Virus record (IMG/VR): IMGVR_UViG_3300037760_000114
Span: 32,001-96,000 of that record
DNA: 64,000 nucleotides
DNA from: a virus
Reading direction: 5' to 3' (one strand)
In this document: positions 2,815 to 63,495 of the stretch, piece after piece
Numbering within the stretch: the first letter of the stretch is position 1
Layout: the number at the start of each line of letters is the position of its first letter
Made by a program: the position numbers and the translations under genes
The notes under the pieces: generated by a model
What the model saw: the letters and a program-made list of their open reading frames with translations, nothing else
What the model was told of the DNA's origin: nothing
Databases searched by the model: none

Positions 2815-3581
2815 GCCGCCCCCATCCTGCGGTCCCACTCCGGCACGTGTCGGGTTCGGCCCCACGTCGGCACCGGGGTCTGCTCCGCGAACAGAAGCCC
2901 CTGACTGTCCTCGTAGAAGTCCACACGCATGTATGCCGTGCCGACGGCGGCGAGGTAGCGGCGGGCCGCGGCGATCATCGCCTCGCCGTTCACGGGCCGG
3001 GGCAAGCTGGTATCAACGGCGGCCTTCGTGCGGGCCCACGGATGCACCTGCCGCCACAGGTCGCGGGGGTCCCAGGCGTTGACCCGTTTGTCCCCGCCCA
3101 CAACGGCGGGGTTGTGCCCGGCGGTCACCAACTCCACCCCGCGCCGGAAGGTGTGCAGCCGGTACGAGATCGGTGGCGAGCCGTCGGGGGTAGCCGATGC
3201 CTCGACGAACCAGGGCCCGTGGATCTGGTCGTGCACGCGTCGCCGCTCGTTGCCGTCCGCCGCCTGCCGGGCCAGGTCCAGCACCTCGGGCCAGGTGCGC
3301 ACCGTCCCGTCGGGCAGGGCGTAGCCGCCCACGACCGGGCGCAGCAGCAGCACCGCCCGCCCAGTCGAGCCCGCGTCCGGCTTGAGCACCGCCGAGCGGC
3401 CCGGGTCTGGCGGGTCTAGGCGGGCGAGGAAGCTAGGGCCGGACAACAGCGTCGGGACCCGGATACCCAGCCGTCCGGCGAGCGCCCTGCCGGCGAGCTT
3501 GCGGTCATGGGTCCAGGCGGGATGGTCAGCGGGCCACCTACGGGCCTGCCGCAGCAACCGATCGAACGACGGTGCGCTCAC
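2799..3581 (-). CDS. ATP-grasp fold amidoligase (TupA-like)
   Basis: DRKL...GIRVPTL, VLKPDAGSTG, WFVE, YMRVDFY...LFAEQTPVP; GTGA overlap. Confidence 0.7.
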   Translation of the reverse strand: MSAPSFDRLLRQARRWPADHPAWTHDRKLAGRALAGRLGIRVPTLLSGPSFLARLDPPDPGRSAVLKPDAGSTGRAVLLLRPVVGGYALPDGTVRTWPEVLDLARQAADGNERRRVHDQIHGPWFVEASATPDGSPPISYRLHTFRRGVELVTAGHNPAVVGGDKRVNAWDPRDLWRQVHPWARTKAAVDTSLPRPVNGEAMIAAARRYLAAVGTAYMRVDFYEDSQGLLFAEQTPVPTWGRTRHVPEWDRRMGAAWLRS

Positions 3582-35159: not shown

Positions 35160-35558
35160 TCAGGCATCAGCGACCACCTCTCGAATGGTCAGCAGCAGTT
35201 CCCCGGCTGGCCCGTACGGGCGTGCCGGGATCGGATCGCCGGGCAGGATGTGCAGTGCGGTGATGTACGAGTCGTTGTCGTCGGCCACAACACCGGCGTC
35301 TACCACCCCATCGACAGCCGCCTTGATCGACGGGTAGACGTTGGGCGCGTCGCGGCGTACGCGGTCGTCCGGGAATCGCACCACCGCGGTTAGTTCAGCC
35401 TGCGCGAGCCGGGGCACCCGGGCCTGCTGGCAGAACGTGCGGCCGGCCTTGCGCCACTCCTTCACGTCGCCCGCCTGGGCCCGCCGGTCCCGCCGCTGGT
35501 TGACGTTCAGCCACGGCACCGGCGCCTTGATCCGTAGCGTCCACTGCCGGCCGGTCAT
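35160..35558 (-). CDS. RusA-like Holliday junction resolvase
   Basis: RRDAPN...KAAVDGVVDAGVVADD. Confidence 0.75.
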   Translation of the reverse strand: MTGRQWTLRIKAPVPWLNVNQRRDRRAQAGDVKEWRKAGRTFCQQARVPRLAQAELTAVVRFPDDRVRRDAPNVYPSIKAAVDGVVDAGVVADDNDSYITALHILPGDPIPARPYGPAGELLLTIREVVADA

Positions 35559-35800
35559 CCGGCCGCCGCCTCAGCCTTGCGCCGCCTCAGCAGCGCCTTG
35601 CGTTCCCGCTCGGTCATGCCACCCCACACCCCGTGCGGCTGCCGGGTGTCCAGGGCGTACTGGAGACAAGCCGGCTGAACTTCACAGCGGCGACAGATAC
35701 GCCGCGCCTCCACGGTCGAGCCCCCCTTCTCCGGGTGGAACGCATCCGGGTCGGTCTGCGAGCACAGCGCCCGTTCCTGCCAGCTCAGGTCCGCAGTCAT
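35555..35800 (-). CDS. whiB: WhiB-family transcription factor
   Basis: WQERALCSQTDPDAF, CRRC..C, GVWGGMTERER. Confidence 0.92.
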   Translation of the reverse strand: MTADLSWQERALCSQTDPDAFHPEKGGSTVEARRICRRCEVQPACLQYALDTRQPHGVWGGMTERERKALLRRRKAEAAAG

Positions 35801-57908: not shown

Positions 57909-59108
57909 TCATCCCTTGACGCACACGACCTGCTTGAGGTGCGCTACCACCTCGACCAGGTCCCGCTGCTCGGCCATCACCTGACCCAGGTCCTTGTACG
58001 CGGCGGGGATCTCGTCGACGACCCCGGCGTCCTTGCGGCACTCCACCCCGGCGGTCTGCTCGGCGAGGTCCTCCAGGGTGAAGCTGCGCTTGGCCTGACC
58101 GCGAGACATCCTGCGGCCAGCACCGTGCGACGCCGAGTTGTAGGCGTCCGGGTTACCCAACCCACGGACGACGTACGAGCCGGTGCCCATGCTGCCCGGG
58201 ATGATCCCCAGCTCTCCGACGCCCGCCCGGATCGCACCCTTGCGGGTCACCAGCAGCTCTACACCGCCGTACGTCTCCTCGGCCACGTAGTTGTGGTGGC
58301 ATGAGATCGGCTCGTCGAAGCTGACCTGCGGCAGGTGGTCACGGACCACGCCGCAGAGCAGGGCCAGCATGACCGCCCGGTTGCGGGCGGCGAACTCCTG
58401 CGCCCACGCGAGGTCACGCCGGTAGGCGTCCATCTCCGGGGTGCCGGCGACGAACACGGCCAAGTCCCGGTCCGGCAGGTCGGCGTTGTGCGGTAGCCCG
58501 CGGGCTACCGTGATGTGGCGCTCGGCAAGCTCCTTGCCGATGTTGCGGGAGCCGGAGTGCAGCATCAGCCACACCCGGCCCGCATCCGGCCCGCCCTGCT
58601 CGACGCAAAGTTCCGCAAAGTGGTTGCCGCCGCCAAGTGTTCCCATCTGGTGCTCGGCCCGACCCCGGAGCTTGCCCACATCGGCGCGCAGTTCGCCGAA
58701 CCGGGACCAGAACCCCACCCAGCCCTTGCCGTCGAGGCCGGGCACACGACGCGGGTCGACAGCCGACTCATGCGACTGGAACCCGACCGGGATCGCCTCC
58801 TCGATCGCCGCCCGTAGCCGGCCGAGGTCGTCCGGCAGGTCGCTGTCCGTCAGCGAGGTACGGACGCAGCTCATGCCGCAGCCGATGTCCACTCCGACCG
58901 CGGCCGGGGCCAACGCCTGCCGCATGGCGATCACCGACCCCACCGTCGCCCCCTTGCCGAAGTGCACATCGGGCATCACGGCGACACCCTCCACCCACGG
59001 CAGGTTGCCGATGTTGCGTAGCTGCTGCTGAGCCTGCGGCTCGATGCCGGCGGGGTCGGTCCACACCCGTACGGGTGCGCGGGTGCCGGGCAGGGTGGTG
59101 TGGGGCAT
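57909..59108 (-). CDS. rtcB: RtcB RNA 3'-phosphate/5'-OH ligase
   Basis: MPDVH.GKG, VGVDIGCG, GTLGGGNHF, HSGSR, CHHNY, PGSMG, SHGAGR, DEIP.AYK, VKG; SD AAGGAG. Confidence 0.95.
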   Translation of the reverse strand: MPHTTLPGTRAPVRVWTDPAGIEPQAQQQLRNIGNLPWVEGVAVMPDVHFGKGATVGSVIAMRQALAPAAVGVDIGCGMSCVRTSLTDSDLPDDLGRLRAAIEEAIPVGFQSHESAVDPRRVPGLDGKGWVGFWSRFGELRADVGKLRGRAEHQMGTLGGGNHFAELCVEQGGPDAGRVWLMLHSGSRNIGKELAERHITVARGLPHNADLPDRDLAVFVAGTPEMDAYRRDLAWAQEFAARNRAVMLALLCGVVRDHLPQVSFDEPISCHHNYVAEETYGGVELLVTRKGAIRAGVGELGIIPGSMGTGSYVVRGLGNPDAYNSASHGAGRRMSRGQAKRSFTLEDLAEQTAGVECRKDAGVVDEIPAAYKDLGQVMAEQRDLVEVVAHLKQVVCVKG

Positions 59109-59138
59109 GGCAGTGCTCCTTCGGTCGTCTGCCAAGAG

Positions 59139-59208: not shown

Positions 59209-59232
59209 TGGTCCACACAGTGGATGGCATCG

Positions 59233-59303
59233 AGATCGCGGCCGGACTCGAACCGGCGTCTACCGCTTTGCAGGCGGTCCCCTGACCACTCGGGCACGCG
59301 ATC
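59233..59303 (-). tRNA. tRNA-Cys(GCA)
   Basis: Cloverleaf, loop CTGCAAA. Confidence 0.85.
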
Positions 59304-59308
59304 TTGTG

Positions 59309-59381
59309 TGTCCCCGGCTGGGTTCGAACCAGCGACCTCGGCCTTCGGAGGGCCGCGCGCTTCCGGCTGCGCCACGAGGAC
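59309..59381 (-). tRNA. tRNA-Arg(CCG)
   Basis: Loop CTCCGAA. Confidence 0.85.
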
Positions 59382-59382
59382 A

Positions 59383-59469
59383 TGGTGCGGGTAGAGAGAT
59401 TCGAACTCCCTGAGCGCATGCGCACCGGGGTTACAGCCCGGCTCACCTCACCATCGGTGACGTACCCGC
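59383..59469 (-). tRNA. tRNA-Tyr(GTA)
   Basis: Loop CTGTAAC, long variable arm, CCA. Confidence 0.85.
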
Positions 59470-59470
59470 T

Positions 59471-59544
59471 TGGGGTGACTGGCCGGAGTTGAACCGGCAT
59501 GTCCAGGGCCACAACCTGGCGCTCTACCATTGAGCTACAGCCAC
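59471..59544 (-). tRNA. tRNA-His(GTG)
   Basis: Loop TTGTGGC, C73, CCA. Confidence 0.85.
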
Positions 59545-59546
59545 AG

Positions 59547-59618
59547 TGCCCGGTGGAGGTGTCGAACCTCCGGCCTTCTGCTTGTAAGGCAGACGCTCTC
59601 CCGTTGAGCTAACCGGGC
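59547..59618 (-). tRNA. tRNA-Val(TAC)
   Basis: Loop CTTACAA. Confidence 0.85.
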
Positions 59619-59623
59619 ATGGG

Positions 59624-59697
59624 TGCGCCGCCTGGGGATCGAACCCAGCGCGGCCAGTTGATAAGACTGGTCTCACCGACCAGGTGAGCTGCGGCGC
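59624..59697 (-). tRNA. tRNA-Ile(TAT)
   Basis: Loop CTTATCA in stem CCAGT/ACTGG. Confidence 0.7.
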
Positions 59698-59700
59698 ATC

Positions 59701-59784
59701 TGGCGGAGGGGGCGGGATTCGAACCCGCGAGGGTGTGACCCCTACGCCGCTTCCAACGGCGTTCCCGTGACCGCCGGCCCCTCC
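59701..59784 (-). tRNA. tRNA-Ser(GGA), reduced D arm
   Basis: Loop TTGGAAG, long variable arm, GCCA. Confidence 0.75.
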
Positions 59785-59785
59785 A

Positions 59786-59859
59786 TGGCTCTCCCGGCTG
59801 GACTCGAACCAACATCGGCGGAGTAACAATCCGCTGTCCTACCATTGAACGACGGGAGA
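59786..59859 (-). tRNA. tRNA-Asn(GTT)
   Basis: Loop TTGTTAC, GCCA. Confidence 0.85.
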
Positions 59860-59863
59860 TCGG

Positions 59864-59937
59864 TAGCGCCGACGGGGCTCGAACCCGCACCGTCTGGATT
59901 GAAAGTCCAGGGACCTGACCGATTAGTCTACGGCGCC
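59864..59937 (-). tRNA. tRNA-Glu(TTC)
   Basis: Loop CTTTCAA. Confidence 0.85.
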
Positions 59938-59942
59938 TTGCG

Positions 59943-60016
59943 TGTTCCGACCTGGGTTCGAACCAGGGGCCTCCACCGTGTCGAGGTGGTGCTCTACCGG
60001 GCTGAGCTACCGGAAC
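59943..60016 (-). tRNA. tRNA-Val(GAC)
   Basis: Loop TCGACAC. Confidence 0.8.
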
Positions 60017-60017
60017 G

Positions 60018-60091
60018 TAGCGGGTGCCGGAATCGAACCGACCTGTCTCGGGTTATGAGCCCGTTGAGCACAACCAGTGCTCCTACCCGCA
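60018..60091 (-). tRNA. tRNA-fMet(CAT), initiator type
   Basis: GGG-CTCATAA-CCC; 1:72 mismatch. Confidence 0.8.
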
Positions 60092-60092
60092 G

Positions 60093-60164
60093 TGCGCCGC
60101 CGAGGAATCGAACCCCGGACACTCCGCTTAAAAGGCGGCAGCTCTACCACTGAGCTAGCGGCGC
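60093..60164 (-). tRNA. tRNA-Lys(TTT)
   Basis: Loop CTTTTAA. Confidence 0.85.
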
Positions 60165-60170
60165 ATGAGC

Positions 60171-60327
60171 GGCGGTGGAGTAGGCGTGTGGCGACGCCTC
60201 GTTCTTAAGCCGCAGACCAAGCGCCGTTCTCCGCCTCGCCTTCTTAGGGGCGACACATCACCCAGCTCCGGTCCTGCCAGCACGTTTAGGAGACCTGCCC
60301 TGGTACCCGGTTGCGGCCTCCACCGCC
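60171..60327 (-). ncRNA. Unknown 157-nt structured RNA
   Basis: 10-bp closing stem GGCGGTGGAG/CTCCACCGCC with nested helices; fills a slot between tRNAs. Confidence 0.55.
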
Positions 60328-60330
60328 GAG

Positions 60331-60402
60331 CCTCCCGCCCCCGATTCGAACGGGGACACCCGCTGTAGGAGAGCGGTGCTCTGTCCGTTGAGCTAGCGGG
60401 AG
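60331..60402 (-). tRNA. tRNA-Arg(CCT)
   Basis: Loop CTCCTAC. Confidence 0.8.
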
Positions 60403-60403
60403 A

Positions 60404-60476
60404 TGGTGCGGCGCCCGAGAGTTGAACTCGGCCCGCTGGCCTTAGAAGGGCCGGCTGCGCATCCGGCGCGCGCCGC
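60404..60476 (-). tRNA. tRNA-Arg(TCT), atypical fold
   Basis: Loop CTTCTAA, ACCA; D stem abuts the acceptor stem. Confidence 0.7.
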
Positions 60477-60479
60477 ATG

Positions 60480-60553
60480 TGGTACGCCGTGAAGGAATCG
60501 AACCTTCGTCCTCGGGGTAAGAGCCCGGAGCTAAACCACTCAGCTAACGGCGC
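60480..60553 (-). tRNA. tRNA-Lys(CTT)
   Basis: Loop CTCTTAC, ACCA. Confidence 0.85.
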
Positions 60554-60554
60554 G

Positions 60555-60638
60555 TGGAGGAGGGTAAGGGAGTCGAACTCTCGGGTGTCACCCCGGCACG
60601 GTTTTCGGGACCGCTTTGCCACCATGGCGCTACCCTCC
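60555..60638 (-). tRNA. tRNA-Ser(CGA)
   Basis: Loop CCCGAAA, long variable arm, CCA. Confidence 0.75.
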
Positions 60639-60643
60639 ATGAG

Positions 60644-60717
60644 TCGGGTGCGGGCGATTTGAACGCCCGGCCTCCGCGTCCCGAACGCGGCGCTCCACCT
60701 AGCTGAGCTAGCACCCG
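60644..60717 (-). tRNA. tRNA-Pro(CGG)
   Basis: Loop TTCGGGA. Confidence 0.85.
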
Positions 60718-60722
60718 TTGCG

Positions 60723-60796
60723 TACCCCCGACAGGACTCGAACCTGCCGCCTCCTGGTTCGTAGCCAGGTGCTCTATCCAGATGAGCTACGGGGGC
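60723..60796 (-). tRNA. tRNA-Arg(ACG)
   Basis: Loop CTACGAA. Confidence 0.85.
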
Positions 60797-60797
60797 A

Positions 60798-60873
60798 TGG
60801 TGGGCCACCCAGGAGTTGAACCTGGCGATGCCGACATATCAGATCGGTCTCGTCACCGGCTGAGTCGTGACCC
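60798..60873 (-). tRNA. tRNA-Ile(GAT)
   Basis: Loop CTGATAT, ACCA. Confidence 0.8.
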
Positions 60874-60874
60874 G

Positions 60875-60956
60875 TGGTGGACCATCCCGGAGTCGAACCG
60901 GGTTCCGCTGCCGTACCGTCATGCGGTCTTCGGCAGCGTCGAAACCTTCATGGCCC
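60875..60956 (-). ncRNA. Minimal tmRNA tRNA-like domain lacking the mRNA domain
   Basis: GGGCCAT-GAAGGTTTCGAC-GCTGCCG...CGGCAGC-GGAA-CCCGG TTCGACT CCGGG-ATGGTCC-ACCA; G3.U70; no D stem. Confidence 0.75.
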
Positions 60957-60960
60957 TCGG

Positions 60961-61045
60961 CGGACAGTGAGGGATTCGAACCCCCGGTGGTTTCCCACTC
61001 CGCGCTAGCAACGCGGCGCCTTAAGCCGGGCTCGGCCAACTGTCC
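60961..61045 (-). tRNA. tRNA-Ser(GCT)
   Basis: Loop TTGCTAG, long variable arm. Confidence 0.85.
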
Positions 61046-61046
61046 T

Positions 61047-61131
61047 TGGGCGTTCGGCCTCTCCTACGACCCCCAACGGGATCGCGCACCCACATGGGGC
61101 TGCGATTGCAGCGCCTATCCCATAGCCGAAC
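61047..61131 (-). ncRNA. Unknown ~85-nt structured RNA
   Basis: Closing stem GTTCGGC/GCCGAAC, internal hairpins, no T-loop consensus. Confidence 0.4.
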
Positions 61132-61147
61132 TAGTGGGTCCCTAGCG

Positions 61148-61221
61148 CGCCTCGTACGGGACTCGAACCCGTGCATCTCCTCCTTGACAGGGAGGCGTCC
61201 ACTCCACTGGACCGACGAGGC
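61148..61221 (-). tRNA. tRNA-Asp(GTC)
   Basis: Loop CTGTCAA. Confidence 0.85.
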
Positions 61222-61226
61222 ATACG

Positions 61227-61300
61227 TACCCGGGACACGATTCGAACGTGCACTGTGCTGGTTCTAAGCCAGCCGCCTCCTGCCGTTGGGCTACCCGGGC
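61227..61300 (-). tRNA. tRNA-Leu(TAG), short variable loop
   Basis: Loop CTTAGAA. Confidence 0.8.
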
Positions 61301-61301
61301 A

Positions 61302-61377
61302 TGGTGGAGAAGAGCGGACTCGAACCGCTTGCCTCCGCTTTGCAAGAGCGGCGCTCTACCTGATGAGCTACATCCCC
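61302..61377 (-). tRNA. tRNA-Ala(TGC)
   Basis: Loop CTTGCAA, G3.U70, ACCA. Confidence 0.85.
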
Positions 61378-61378
61378 G

Positions 61379-61454
61379 TGGAGCCGGTGACGCGGATCGA
61401 ACGCGCTCCCTCCTGCGTACGAAGCAGGCGCACTACCTTCAGTGCTTCACCGGC
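61379..61454 (-). tRNA. tRNA-Thr(CGT)
   Basis: Loop TTCGTAC, CCA. Confidence 0.85.
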
Positions 61455-61455
61455 A

Positions 61456-61590
61456 GGGTAGGCCGCCCGGACTTGAACCGGGCATCTCCCGCTGCCCGCC
61501 CTCTGGCGGGACTCGCCCGGTGCTCCATCGGGTTCCCTAGGCTCCGATGGTCTTAGGCGGCAGGCGACTTGCCGTTAGTCGATTGGCCCA
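61456..61590 (-). ncRNA. tRNA-like RNA with a 67-nt structured insert in place of the anticodon loop
   Basis: D arm GACT-AACGGCA-AGTC, stem CCTGC/GCGGG, T arm CCCGG TTCAAGT CCGGG; insert 61493-61559. Confidence 0.6.
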
Positions 61591-61594
61591 CGTA

Positions 61595-61663
61595 AGCCGG
61601 CGGCGCGAGTCGAACGCGCGGCTGCCGCCTTACAAGGGCGGTGCACCACCGTGGCTCGCCGGC
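61595..61663 (-). tRNA. tRNA-Thr(TGT), reduced D arm
   Basis: Loop CTTGTAA. Confidence 0.75.
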
Positions 61664-61667
61664 ATCG

Positions 61668-61740
61668 CTGGGAGCCCAGGATTCGAACCTGAACCGACGG
61701 TTTCAGAGACCGCCGTGCTGCCGGATTACACCAGCTCCCA
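61668..61740 (-). tRNA. tRNA-Gln(CTG)
   Basis: Loop CTCTGAA. Confidence 0.85.
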
Positions 61741-61775
61741 ATGACCCGGCCGGGCCTAGTCATCCCGGCCGGGGT

Positions 61776-62228
61776 TCAGCGCGAGGTCACCGACGCCCAC
61801 GACGGGGCAGCCGGCCTGACCCGCAGCACCATGCCCGCCTCGGCGGGGGTGCGGTCACCCTTGCGCTGGTTGCACGGCCCGCACGCGGCGACCGTGTTGC
61901 GCCAGGTGTTCCGGCCGCCGCGGGCACGCGGGACGATGTGGTCAACGGTGCTGGCCGTGGCCGGGCAGTAGCCGCAGCGGCGCTGGTCGCGGGCGAGCAC
62001 ACCAGTCCGGGACCAGGCGGGGCCGGCGGTGTACCGCCACTTCGTGACCACGTAGTTGACCAGCCGCAGCACCCTCGGCACAGGCCAGACTCCGATGATC
62101 CGGTCCGGTTCACCTTCGTGGACCACTGCGACCTGCCGGACGAGCATCCGGATCGCGTGCCGGAAGGACACCCGGTGCAGCGGGCCAAGATCAGCGTTCA
62201 AGACGAGTACGGCGTCCACCGGGTTCAC
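61776..62228 (-). CDS. HNH endonuclease inside the tRNA array
   Basis: VLVLNAD..PL, RDQRRCGYC, TVDHIVPRARGG..TWRNTVAACGPCNQRKG; SD AGGAGG. Confidence 0.9.
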   Translation of the reverse strand: MNPVDAVLVLNADLGPLHRVSFRHAIRMLVRQVAVVHEGEPDRIIGVWPVPRVLRLVNYVVTKWRYTAGPAWSRTGVLARDQRRCGYCPATASTVDHIVPRARGGRNTWRNTVAACGPCNQRKGDRTPAEAGMVLRVRPAAPSWASVTSR

Positions 62229-62247
62229 CTCCTGTCGTGGTGGGCGC

Positions 62248-62321
62248 TGGAGCGGCTACGGGGAATCGAACCCCGGTCTGCTGCATGGCAAGCAGCCGCA
62301 CTGCCGTTGTGCTACAGCCGC
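62248..62321 (-). tRNA. tRNA-Gly(GCC)
   Basis: Loop TTGCCAT, TCCA. Confidence 0.85.
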
Positions 62322-62326
62322 ATGAG

Positions 62327-62400
62327 AGCCATCGGCGCGATTCGAACGCGCGGCCTTCCGCTTACCGGGCGGACGCTCTAACCACCTGAGCTACGACGGC
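62327..62400 (-). tRNA. tRNA-Thr(GGT)
   Basis: Loop CCGGTAA. Confidence 0.8.
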
Positions 62401-62401
62401 G

Positions 62402-62478
62402 TGGTACTCCGGGTGCGATTCGAACGCACACTGTGCGCGGTTTGAACGCGCCGCCTCCTGCCGTTGGGCTACCGGAGC
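62402..62478 (-). tRNA. tRNA-Leu(CAA), short variable loop
   Basis: Loop TTCAAAC, ACCA. Confidence 0.8.
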
Positions 62479-62483
62479 ACGAG

Positions 62484-62554
62484 CTGAGGGCGGAGGATTC
62501 GAACCCCCACAGCTGGGACCAAAACCCAGCGACCTGCCGTTAGTCGAGCCCTCA
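62484..62554 (-). tRNA. tRNA-Gln(TTG)
   Basis: Loop TTTTGGT. Confidence 0.85.
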
Positions 62555-62559
62555 ACGAG

Positions 62560-62631
62560 AGCGAGCGGCGGGAGTCGAACCCGCTACGTCTGTTTGGAAG
62601 ACAGAAGTGTCACCACCAACACCTCGCTCGC
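62560..62631 (-). tRNA. tRNA-Gly(TCC)
   Basis: Loop CTTCCAA. Confidence 0.85.
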
Positions 62632-62636
62632 ATGAG

Positions 62637-62710
62637 TAGGCCGTACGGGGCTCGAACCCGTAACCTCTGCGCTGAGAACGCAGTGAGCTGCCAGCTTGCT
62701 CCAACGGCCC
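62637..62710 (-). tRNA. tRNA-Glu(CTC)
   Basis: Loop TTCTCAG. Confidence 0.85.
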
Positions 62711-62713
62711 AAG

Positions 62714-62774
62714 GGCGCCGGGCAGGGTGTGTACCCCTGCGCTGTCCGGACACTGCATCAGCACTTCCGGCGCC
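62714..62774 (-). ncRNA. 61-nt anticodon-less tRNA-shaped RNA
   Basis: GGCGCCGG/CCGGCGCC stem stacked on the GCAGGG-GTACACA-CCCTGC hairpin. Confidence 0.4.
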
Positions 62775-62776
62775 AG

Positions 62777-62849
62777 TGCTCGTGGCCGGGATCGAACCGG
62801 CGGCCTCCGGGACTTCACGCCGGCGCTCAACCTGCTGAGCTTCACGAGC
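62777..62849 (-). tRNA. tRNA-Phe(GAA)
   Basis: Loop GTGAAGT; 31:39 mismatch. Confidence 0.7.
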
Positions 62850-62850
62850 A

Positions 62851-62925
62851 TGGTGGACCACAAGGGGATCGAACCCTTCACAGAGTGTCTGCCAGACGCT
62901 CCCGCACACCAGTGACGTGCGGCCC
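62851..62925 (-). tRNA. tRNA-Ala(GGC)
   Basis: Loop CTGGCAG, G3.U70, ACCA. Confidence 0.75.
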
Positions 62926-62930
62926 ATGAG

Positions 62931-63003
62931 TCGGGAACCGGGGAGTCGAACCCCGCACTTCCTGCTCCCAAGGCAGGCCCGGTCACCGCGCCGGTCGCCC
63001 CCG
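62931..63003 (-). tRNA. tRNA-Pro(TGG)
   Basis: Loop CTTGGGA. Confidence 0.75.
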
Positions 63004-63092
63004 ATGCCCCGGCGCGACGATGCGCGCCGGGTCTCATGCCATCCACTGTGCAGATATCAACTTCCGATCCCACCGGCCGTAGCCGGGAGAAG

Positions 63093-63167
63093 CAGGGGCG
63101 ACAGGATTCGAACCTGCGGCTTGCGGGTTTGGAGTCCGCTGCTCTGACCGTGCTGAGCTACACCCCT
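63093..63167 (-). tRNA. tRNA-Trp(CCA)
   Basis: Loop CTCCAAA. Confidence 0.85.
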
Positions 63168-63189
63168 ATGTTCAGTTGTCCAGGTACGA

Positions 63190-63224
63190 GAAACGCCGCC
63201 CTTCCCGGTCTGGGTGGGCGGCGC
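63190..63224 (-). terminator. Attenuator terminator hairpin
   Basis: GCGCCGCCC...GGGCGGCGT followed by a short U run. Confidence 0.55.
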
Positions 63225-63246
63225 CTGCGCGTCTGGTTGGTCTGCG

Positions 63247-63366
63247 CTAAACGCGCCACCGCCCCGTATTCAGCTGCTCGATCGCTCGGGGGTACCCGTG
63301 CGTCGGGCACGGCCTACCGGCGAGCGGCATCGACCGCTTCGCTTCGGTTGAGCTGCGCCACAACAT
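63247..63366 (-). CDS. 39-aa leader peptide of the tRNA/rtcB operon
   Basis: SD GAGGGAG; MLWRSSTEAKRSMPLAGRPCPTHGYPRAIEQLNTGRWRV*. Confidence 0.55.
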   Translation of the reverse strand: MLWRSSTEAKRSMPLAGRPCPTHGYPRAIEQLNTGRWRV

Positions 63367-63398
63367 CCTGGTCTCTCCCTCGGTTCGGTTCGAATCTC

Positions 63399-63495
63399 AC
63401 TCTACGGCCGGTGATCGGCGGAGGCAACGGACTTCCGCTGTTGCCGCCGCGTGTCGGCTAACTACAACTCTAACAGCGCGCGCTGTAATATGCAA
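63399..63495 (-). promoter_or_regulatory. Tandem sigma70-type promoters
   Basis: TTGCAT-17-TAGAGT (63495-63467) and TTGCCT-17-TAGAGT (63427-63399); palindrome ACAGCGCGCGCTGT at 63473-63486. Confidence 0.65.

Follow-up and report, generated by a model that had tools for sequence, protein, structure and literature searches.

A probable uORF-dependent attenuator, shared with host rtcB operons, at the head of a phage tRNA array

The question raised by this locus is when, and by what means, a phage expresses a large set of spare tRNAs. Phage tRNA sets are now thought to substitute for host tRNAs cut by defence nucleases (PMC10264068, PMC11555353). In this study we analysed a window of 64 kb (the whole stretch of DNA considered here), corresponding to positions 32001-96000 of a virus record that is 104,084 bp long, has a GC content of about 70% and carries direct terminal repeats. 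Its minus strand, on which all window features located in this text lie, carries 33 tRNA genes (59232-63167, identified with ARAGORN and Rfam) and rtcB (57909-59135, PF01139), which encodes an RNA 3'-phosphate/5'-OH ligase and is the final gene of the presumed unit. Downstream of the leader the order is tRNA-Trp(CCA), 32 further tRNAs with an HNH endonuclease ORF (62228-61776, Pfam HNH) inside the array, then rtcB. A simple scan found no consensus promoter or terminator inside the tRNA array, and the arrangement is consistent with a single transcription unit formed by the array and rtcB. RtcB of the phage and that of Micromonosporaceae are 80-84% identical, which indicates a host in this family and a recent capture of the gene; the nearest RtcB relatives (P0002-P0010) have 83-89% identity. 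Our analysis suggests that expression of the 33 tRNAs and of rtcB is probably gated by a uORF-dependent attenuator that the phage obtained, along with rtcB, from an operon of a Micromonosporaceae host.

Two further elements were observed in the array itself. In a gap where ARAGORN calls no gene, positions 60559-60638 match the Rfam tRNA clan (tRNA-Sec model, 29.9 bits), which suggests an additional non-canonical tRNA-like gene. Just 3' of tRNA-Trp, a 15-nt sequence, CACAGTGGATGGCAT (63036-63050), is kept as CCACAGTGGATGGCATGG in one related locus (L430) and nearly so in another (L432), and is thus a conserved element and no chance repeat.

The leader element, delimited by sequence reading and folding, runs from promoter to terminator over 63436-63186, and HTH genes sit just upstream of it. 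The putative promoter (63399-63436) is of the WhiB7/WblC-activated type, for which the published consensus is GAAAWY, 3 bp, TKGMNN, 16-19 bp, TANNNT (PMC7157823). It is composed of the element GGAAGT/GAAGTC (63436-63430), a -35 box TTGCCT (63427-63422), a 17-nt spacer and a -10 box TAGAGT (63404-63399), from which a transcription start near 63392 is predicted. Read as GAAGTC-2-TTGCCT-17-TAGAGT, it matches 12 of 13 scored positions if a gap of 2 bp is allowed, while with a 3-bp gap the motif scores 4 of 6; it is the sole site scoring at least 12 on either strand of the window. The same fit is found throughout the leader family described below, with a mean score of 11.35 out of 13 vs 8.73 +/- 0.86 in shuffles, and with scores of at least 12 in 10 of 20 leaders vs 0.2% of shuffles. 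Such a promoter lies 27-43 nt 5' of the uORF in 18 of the 20 related leaders. Full scores of 13 are reached in L431 (GAAAAT-3-TTGCCA-18-TACCTT) and L023, and the promoter of L169 reads GAAATA-3-TTGCCT-17-TACCAT. From this fit to the consensus, we infer that the leader promoter is WhiB7-dependent. The phage itself encodes a WhiB-like protein of 81 aa (35555-35800; PF02467, 89 bits), which is devoid of the C-terminal AT hook and is therefore no WhiB7 equivalent.

The promoter is followed by a Shine-Dalgarno site, GGGAGAG (63373-63379), located 6 nt 5' of an ATG; in relatives this position is occupied by AAGGAG, GAGGAG or GGGAG. The ATG opens a leader uORF of 39 sense codons and a TAG stop (63247-63366), as given by the ORF list and a codon count. 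The initial annotation had credited this leader with 30 distinct codons and 18 amino acids in 39 codons, and our recount returned the same figures; the coordinates and sequences that it listed are likewise all correct. An open frame of 39 codons is by itself unremarkable at 70% GC, and the significance of the uORF comes from its Shine-Dalgarno site, from the fixed position of its stop and from its recurrence in relatives.

Two competing structures are predicted from the end of the uORF onwards. The proposed pairing of GGGCGGTGGCGCGTT (63264-63250) with GACGCGCAGGCGCCGCCC (63233-63216) does form in folding, giving an antiterminator hairpin (63216-63264) of 16 pairs and -26.9 kcal/mol (z = -2.5 vs shuffles). 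Its 5' arm is made of the final five uORF codons, and its 3' arm takes in the 5' arm of a second hairpin. The latter resembles an intrinsic terminator (63186-63225): a stem-loop at 63225-63192 with a folding energy of -24.6 kcal/mol (z = -3.4 vs shuffles), followed by the tail UUUCUCGU. The U tract had been noted as weak, which is correct, and a simple terminator scan makes no call at this site because of it. Mycobacterial RNA polymerase is reported to require a U tract (PMC3993855). The U tracts are stronger in relatives, for instance UUUUCUUUU and UUUUUCGUU.

Among 8 sequences, 3 of the 10 pairs of the terminator stem show compensatory changes that preserve the pairing. When the window leader was folded by hand up to the terminator loop, the terminator 5' arm paired with the last uORF codons, and the same is found in 6 of 8 leaders, in folds that extend only up to this loop. 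Covariation in the classical sense can support the antiterminator only to a limited extent, given that the terminator arm has an invariant core, GCCGCC; moreover, the spacer is misaligned between subgroups, and an alignment-free duplex test was therefore used, in which the best partner of the terminator arm was sought anywhere from the start codon to the terminator. This partner ends 1-8 nt 5' of the stop codon in 17 of 23 leaders, corresponding to 11 of 17 lineages, for a chance expectation of about 0.12. This simple 10-nt duplex test fails in the other 6 of the 17 lineages. At equilibrium, full-length leaders adopt the terminator state irrespective of whether an antiterminator could form, and any switch must thus be kinetic, as in other attenuators. 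The uORF contains further conserved hairpins.

Searches with the leader DNA against phage and plasmid collections returned no near match, similarity being limited to the tRNA part, and no related locus was found with the excisionase-like neighbour as search anchor. Relatives were gathered from RtcB-anchored viral and metagenome contigs, from a pattern scan of genome contigs and from an RNA-model scan. The metagenome sample consisted of 80 loci, and the RNA-model genome scans scored 26-150 of more than 10,000 first-look candidates. Viral contigs were scanned with the patterns GGACAACTGAANNTAG and CGGTGGCGCN{4,5}AGCGCAG; among the matches listed only L023 was real, the others being due to chance. 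A covariance model, R1, was constructed from eight leaders and extends from the last 12 uORF codons through the terminator.

The complete layout, promoter, Shine-Dalgarno site, uORF, antiterminator and terminator, recurs in about 20 divergent lineages. It heads tRNA arrays in L023, L149 (= L375), L213 (= L353), L354, L180, L214 (= L217), L200, L430, L431 and L432, and tRNA-Trp is the first gene in every array relative found with it. Furthermore, R1 matches lie directly upstream of array-less rtcB genes in L160, in L168-L174 and in at least 11 of 30 sampled Micromonosporaceae rtcB loci. Between leader and rtcB these rtcB-type loci contain nothing or one tRNA gene (Arg, Cys, Gly or Glu), and the phage or mobile versions contain 10-38 tRNA genes. 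In addition, the leader peptide of the window has 16 of 39 residues in common with that of L383, a Micromonosporaceae rtcB locus (z = 6.4). The presence of the layout at host rtcB genes and this peptide likeness identify the element as the rtcB-operon leader of the host lineage. The attenuator reading of the initial annotation is supported; this borrowed host origin and the WhiB7/WblC-type promoter had been missed.

Several of these loci deserve a separate description. In L380, L385, L391, L394 and L400 the lone tRNA between terminator and rtcB is Arg-ACG, Cys-GCA, Gly-CCC, Glu-CTC and Gly-GCC, respectively; such single-tRNA rtcB loci look like minimal phage arrays. L383 has a tRNA-like sequence at this place that ARAGORN does not call. 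L214 (~707-785) and L200 (~3117-3195) have, after the leader, a Trp-like tRNA with the anticodon loop UUCCAAA and a G1-U72 pair that is likewise ARAGORN-negative. One Micromonosporaceae MAG (G002) harbours two different leader-tRNA array-rtcB modules on separate contigs, L353 and L375, which are identical to the metagenome contigs L213 and L149. The L213 module begins right after a tRNA-Thr gene, as would an integrated element. Finally, in two lower-GC phages that encode RtcB and a tRNA array headed by Trp, a near-consensus promoter, TTGACA-17-TACAAT, lies directly 5' of tRNA-Trp (L002 6860-6905, L022 5655-5700), without uORF or terminator, and the attenuator is therefore not universal among such arrays.

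Recurrence of the uORF was assessed with a frame-blind search of 20 leader lineages for an ORF of at least 30 codons that has a 5-nt Shine-Dalgarno match ahead of it and whose end falls at model position 25-45. Such a uORF was found in 14 of the 20 lineages, vs 1.5% of dinucleotide shuffles and none of the 20 reverse complements. Among the leaders without a match, some appear leaderless, such as L023 and L396 (16 codons). The encoded peptides drift rapidly, with 9-56% mutual identity among array leaders, and of the changes that separate the L149 and L354 leaders 7 are non-synonymous and 1 is synonymous; a few peptide motifs recur, namely xLW near the start and MP in mid-peptide. What is preserved throughout, despite this drift, is the reading frame with its start signals and the place of its stop. 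By sequence comparison, the pattern is the signature expected of an ORF whose translation counts above its product. Indeed, a Shine-Dalgarno-led uORF, a stop adjoining the antiterminator 5' arm and a terminator ahead of the tRNA are kept across about 20 leaders, which argues for the ribosome-mediated attenuation that had been proposed.

What such a ribosome would sense depends on the codons that it reads. Stretches of 39 codons in the real genes of this phage contain 23.2 +/- 2.6 distinct codons, and only 0.7% of them reach the 30 of the leader. Composition-matched random open frames contain 26.4 +/- 2.2 distinct codons; 8% of them have at least 30, and 1.2% have at least 18 amino acids. Amino-acid diversity was expressed as a z-score against random open frames of equal length and base composition. 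The array leaders gave 2.8 (window), 3.0, 1.1, 3.2, 3.3, 3.2 and 2.8, and L430-L432 gave 3.2, 3.7 and 2.5. The mean for ten rtcB-type lineages is 0.29, and the two groups differ with a Mann-Whitney p of 1e-4, a value uncorrected for phylogeny in a contrast where the array leaders represent perhaps 4-5 clades. All 20 amino acids are found within the 39-46 codons of L180, L200 and L431. Compared with segments of equal length from proteins of the phage itself, the array leaders are again the more diverse (P between 0.0006 and 0.06), L149 excepted. The contrast is also visible in the clade of the window, in which the window and L430-L432 are diverse and L391, L394 and L380 are not; L383, of rtcB type, is an exception (z = 2.5).

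The 39-codon leader contains no cluster or run of the codons of any residue. Trp codons are single, and 14 of 17 leader lineages contain Trp. Relative to phage proteins, Arg shows a 1.8-fold enrichment that tracks GC content, and Ala is not enriched (ratio 0.75). The expectation that codon diversity would be conserved in homologous leaders was thus borne out for the array leaders (z of about +3) but not for the rtcB-only leaders, nor for the array leaders L149 and L354, in which no unusual diversity was found. The idea of a leader designed to sense almost any tRNA is consistent with these data, as the richness that it predicts is found in array leaders and absent from rtcB-only homologues.

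Taken together, these features suggest the following sequence of events. Transcription would begin at the WhiB7/WblC-type promoter, and a ribosome would load onto the 39-codon uORF. Moving at normal speed, it would stand at the last codons or the stop while the polymerase makes the terminator; there it would cover 63264-63250 without reaching the terminator arm, about 22 nt downstream. With the antiterminator 5' arm covered, the terminator would form and transcription would stop about 20 nt 5' of tRNA-Trp. If the ribosome were delayed within roughly the first 30 codons, or did not load at all, the last codons would pair with the terminator 5' arm, and, with the antiterminator formed, the polymerase would go on to transcribe the tRNAs and rtcB. 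That the uORF is translated, that the hairpin terminates transcription and that the switch works in this direction are all predicted from the arrangement of these elements. Array-type leaders encode nearly every amino acid once or twice, without codon runs, so that the switch would report general decoding trouble. Most likely it would respond when almost any tRNA is cleaved or in short supply, when ribosomes are inhibited or when the cell starves, and the tRNAs and the RNA-repair ligase would probably be transcribed only when ribosomes are in trouble. RtcB joins RNA ends bearing a 2',3'-cyclic phosphate and a 5'-OH, as anticodon nucleases leave them. A broader scenario is plausible, although we hold it only tentatively: phages and mobile arrays of actinobacteria would have captured the host rtcB leader and remodelled its uORF as a test track in which nearly all amino acids occur, so that loss of almost any tRNA, for instance to anticodon-nuclease defences, frees a complete set of spare tRNAs and the ligase able to reseal cut ones, the WhiB7-type promoter providing a feed-forward layer.

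Other explanations of the leader were considered. The switch could be real but set in trans, by an RNA-binding antiterminator protein of phage or host or by a T-box-like recognition of uncharged tRNA, the uORF being incidental or otherwise used. Protein-mediated antitermination is a common phage means of timing gene expression, and the additional conserved hairpins within the uORF as well as the neighbouring HTH genes would suit it. Yet a Shine-Dalgarno-led uORF with its stop fixed beside the antiterminator arm is kept far above chance, in phage arrays and chromosomal rtcB loci alike, to which a phage factor would not be common; furthermore, no Rfam model, T-box included, matches the leader (63168-63470) at E values up to 1. 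We thus regard control in trans as unlikely. An attenuator tuned to a single amino acid or tRNA appears equally improbable. Trp is the obvious candidate, being present in 14 of the 17 leader lineages, mostly as one or two UGG codons, while tRNA-Trp leads every array found. However, no leader has tandem or clustered Trp codons, and the C-terminal UGG is located inside the antiterminator arm, where a stall favours termination. As for Arg, which makes up 18% of leader residues and is enriched as described above, the excess is expected from the high GC content and is strongest in rtcB-only leaders. Array leaders are marked by diversity rather than by any one residue.

If the uORF were instead a small protein gene with its own terminator, and the array were expressed by leaky read-through or from another promoter, there would be no switch. 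The array-type peptides are indeed protein-like and diverse, and share the few motifs mentioned above. Against this stand their rapid drift and the 7:1 ratio of non-synonymous to synonymous changes between L149 and L354, as well as the distance of only about 20 nt from terminator to tRNA-Trp in an array where no other promoter-like site was found; moreover, no purpose would be served by the overlap between antiterminator and final codons, which is conserved. This possibility seems to us more remote than the preceding two. Least probable of all, we believe, is that the hairpin and a box, GGACAACTGAA (63171-63181), located between terminator and tRNA-Trp, constitute an rrn-like Nus-factor (boxB-boxA) site that would make the polymerase resistant to termination over the array. 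Long untranslated transcripts are vulnerable to Rho, the box is kept in L023 and L430, with near-matches in L431 and L432, and the window sequence GTTTCTCGTACCTGGACAAC (63171-63193, terminator tail and GGACAAC box) agrees with a Micromonospora 16S rrn leader, GTTTCTTGATATCTCGACAGG (L434 1395-1430), at 13 of 21 positions. But the box is absent from L149, L213, L180, L214, L200 and the rtcB-only leaders, all of which retain the uORF and both hairpins. A boxA/Nus site was therefore rejected as the main explanation, since most leader lineages, more than half, lack the box; at most, it may be an accessory feature of a single clade (the window, L023 and L430-L432).

Attenuation through translation of the uORF is hence the reading that we retain as probable. 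On the sequence evidence, the feature is real and conserved, and it appears to follow known attenuator logic in a new variant that would be in use on phage tRNA arrays. The release of a full set of tRNAs together with RtcB fits the view that phage tRNAs replace cleaved host tRNAs. If the model is true, a ribosome sensor acting in cis before the array would allow spare tRNAs and RtcB to be made on demand. At chromosomal loci, the rtcB leader would link ribosome stalling directly to RNA repair in Actinobacteria, independently of RtcR/sigma-54, and rtcB would be joined to the WhiB7 translation-stress response. The diverse array leaders and the ordinary rtcB leaders also offer a simple contrast for whether one leader can sense all tRNAs. 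In the literature that we searched, no description was found of actinobacterial rtcB, or of a phage tRNA array, under the control of a uORF attenuator.

Among known systems, the whiB7 leader is the most instructive. There, efficient translation of a uORF leads to a rho-independent terminator, read-through follows when translation is under stress or the start codon is lost, and the diverse uORF senses the shortage of many amino acids (PMC10274678). The leader described here resembles those of whiB7/wblC in its promoter-proximal uORF, long and codon-diverse and free of single-codon runs, and in the A/T-rich GAAAWY element just 5' of the -35 box; as in Micromonospora whiB7 leaders, the stop codon is inside the antiterminator. 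It differs in its length (33-47 codons vs roughly 80-100 in Micromonospora whiB7), in the lack of Ala enrichment, in being borne by phages and mobile arrays, and in controlling tRNAs and an RNA ligase rather than a transcription factor. whiB7 leaders are the top R1 matches in their loci, yet the matches are weak (15-20 bits) and no clear homology is found, by eye either. Given these scores and its location upstream of tRNAs and rtcB, membership of the whiB7/wblC leader family was rejected. In three Micromonospora whiB7 loci (L426-L428, ~1230-1340 in gene orientation) the uORF ends with ...VPPRGRPV and the antiterminator rivals a GGCCGCGGA/TCCGCGGCC terminator; the leaders of L214 and L200 have a C-terminus, GGPPG/GGPPV, similar to this ending of the whiB7 uORF.

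In Pseudomonas aeruginosa, the PA5471.1 leader peptide and terminators upstream of armZ have been proposed to hold an RtcB-like gene off until ribosomes stall (PMC12057347). That system belongs to another phylum, has an unrelated sequence and no tRNA genes, and its product ArmZ is an anti-repressor of MexZ. Leader-peptide attenuators of the trp, his and leu type have been predicted in Actinobacteria (PMC1262725). The classical attenuators likewise have a short, Shine-Dalgarno-led ORF and mutually exclusive hairpins, with termination favoured by a ribosome at the stop; unlike the present leader, they have runs of cognate codons and precede biosynthetic enzymes, in place of near-maximal diversity without runs ahead of tRNA and RNA-repair genes. 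With 30 distinct codons and 18 amino acids in 39 codons and no clustering, an attenuator of the trpL/hisL type was rejected. A T-box riboswitch was also rejected, for want of a covariance-model match over the stretch searched (63168-63470, Rfam, E up to 1). In E. coli and Salmonella, rtcBA is under RtcR/sigma-54 control, RtcR being a protein activator that senses RNA fragments. In both cases RtcB would be induced upon damage to the translation apparatus; in the present leader it is the translating ribosome itself that would read the signal, in cis.
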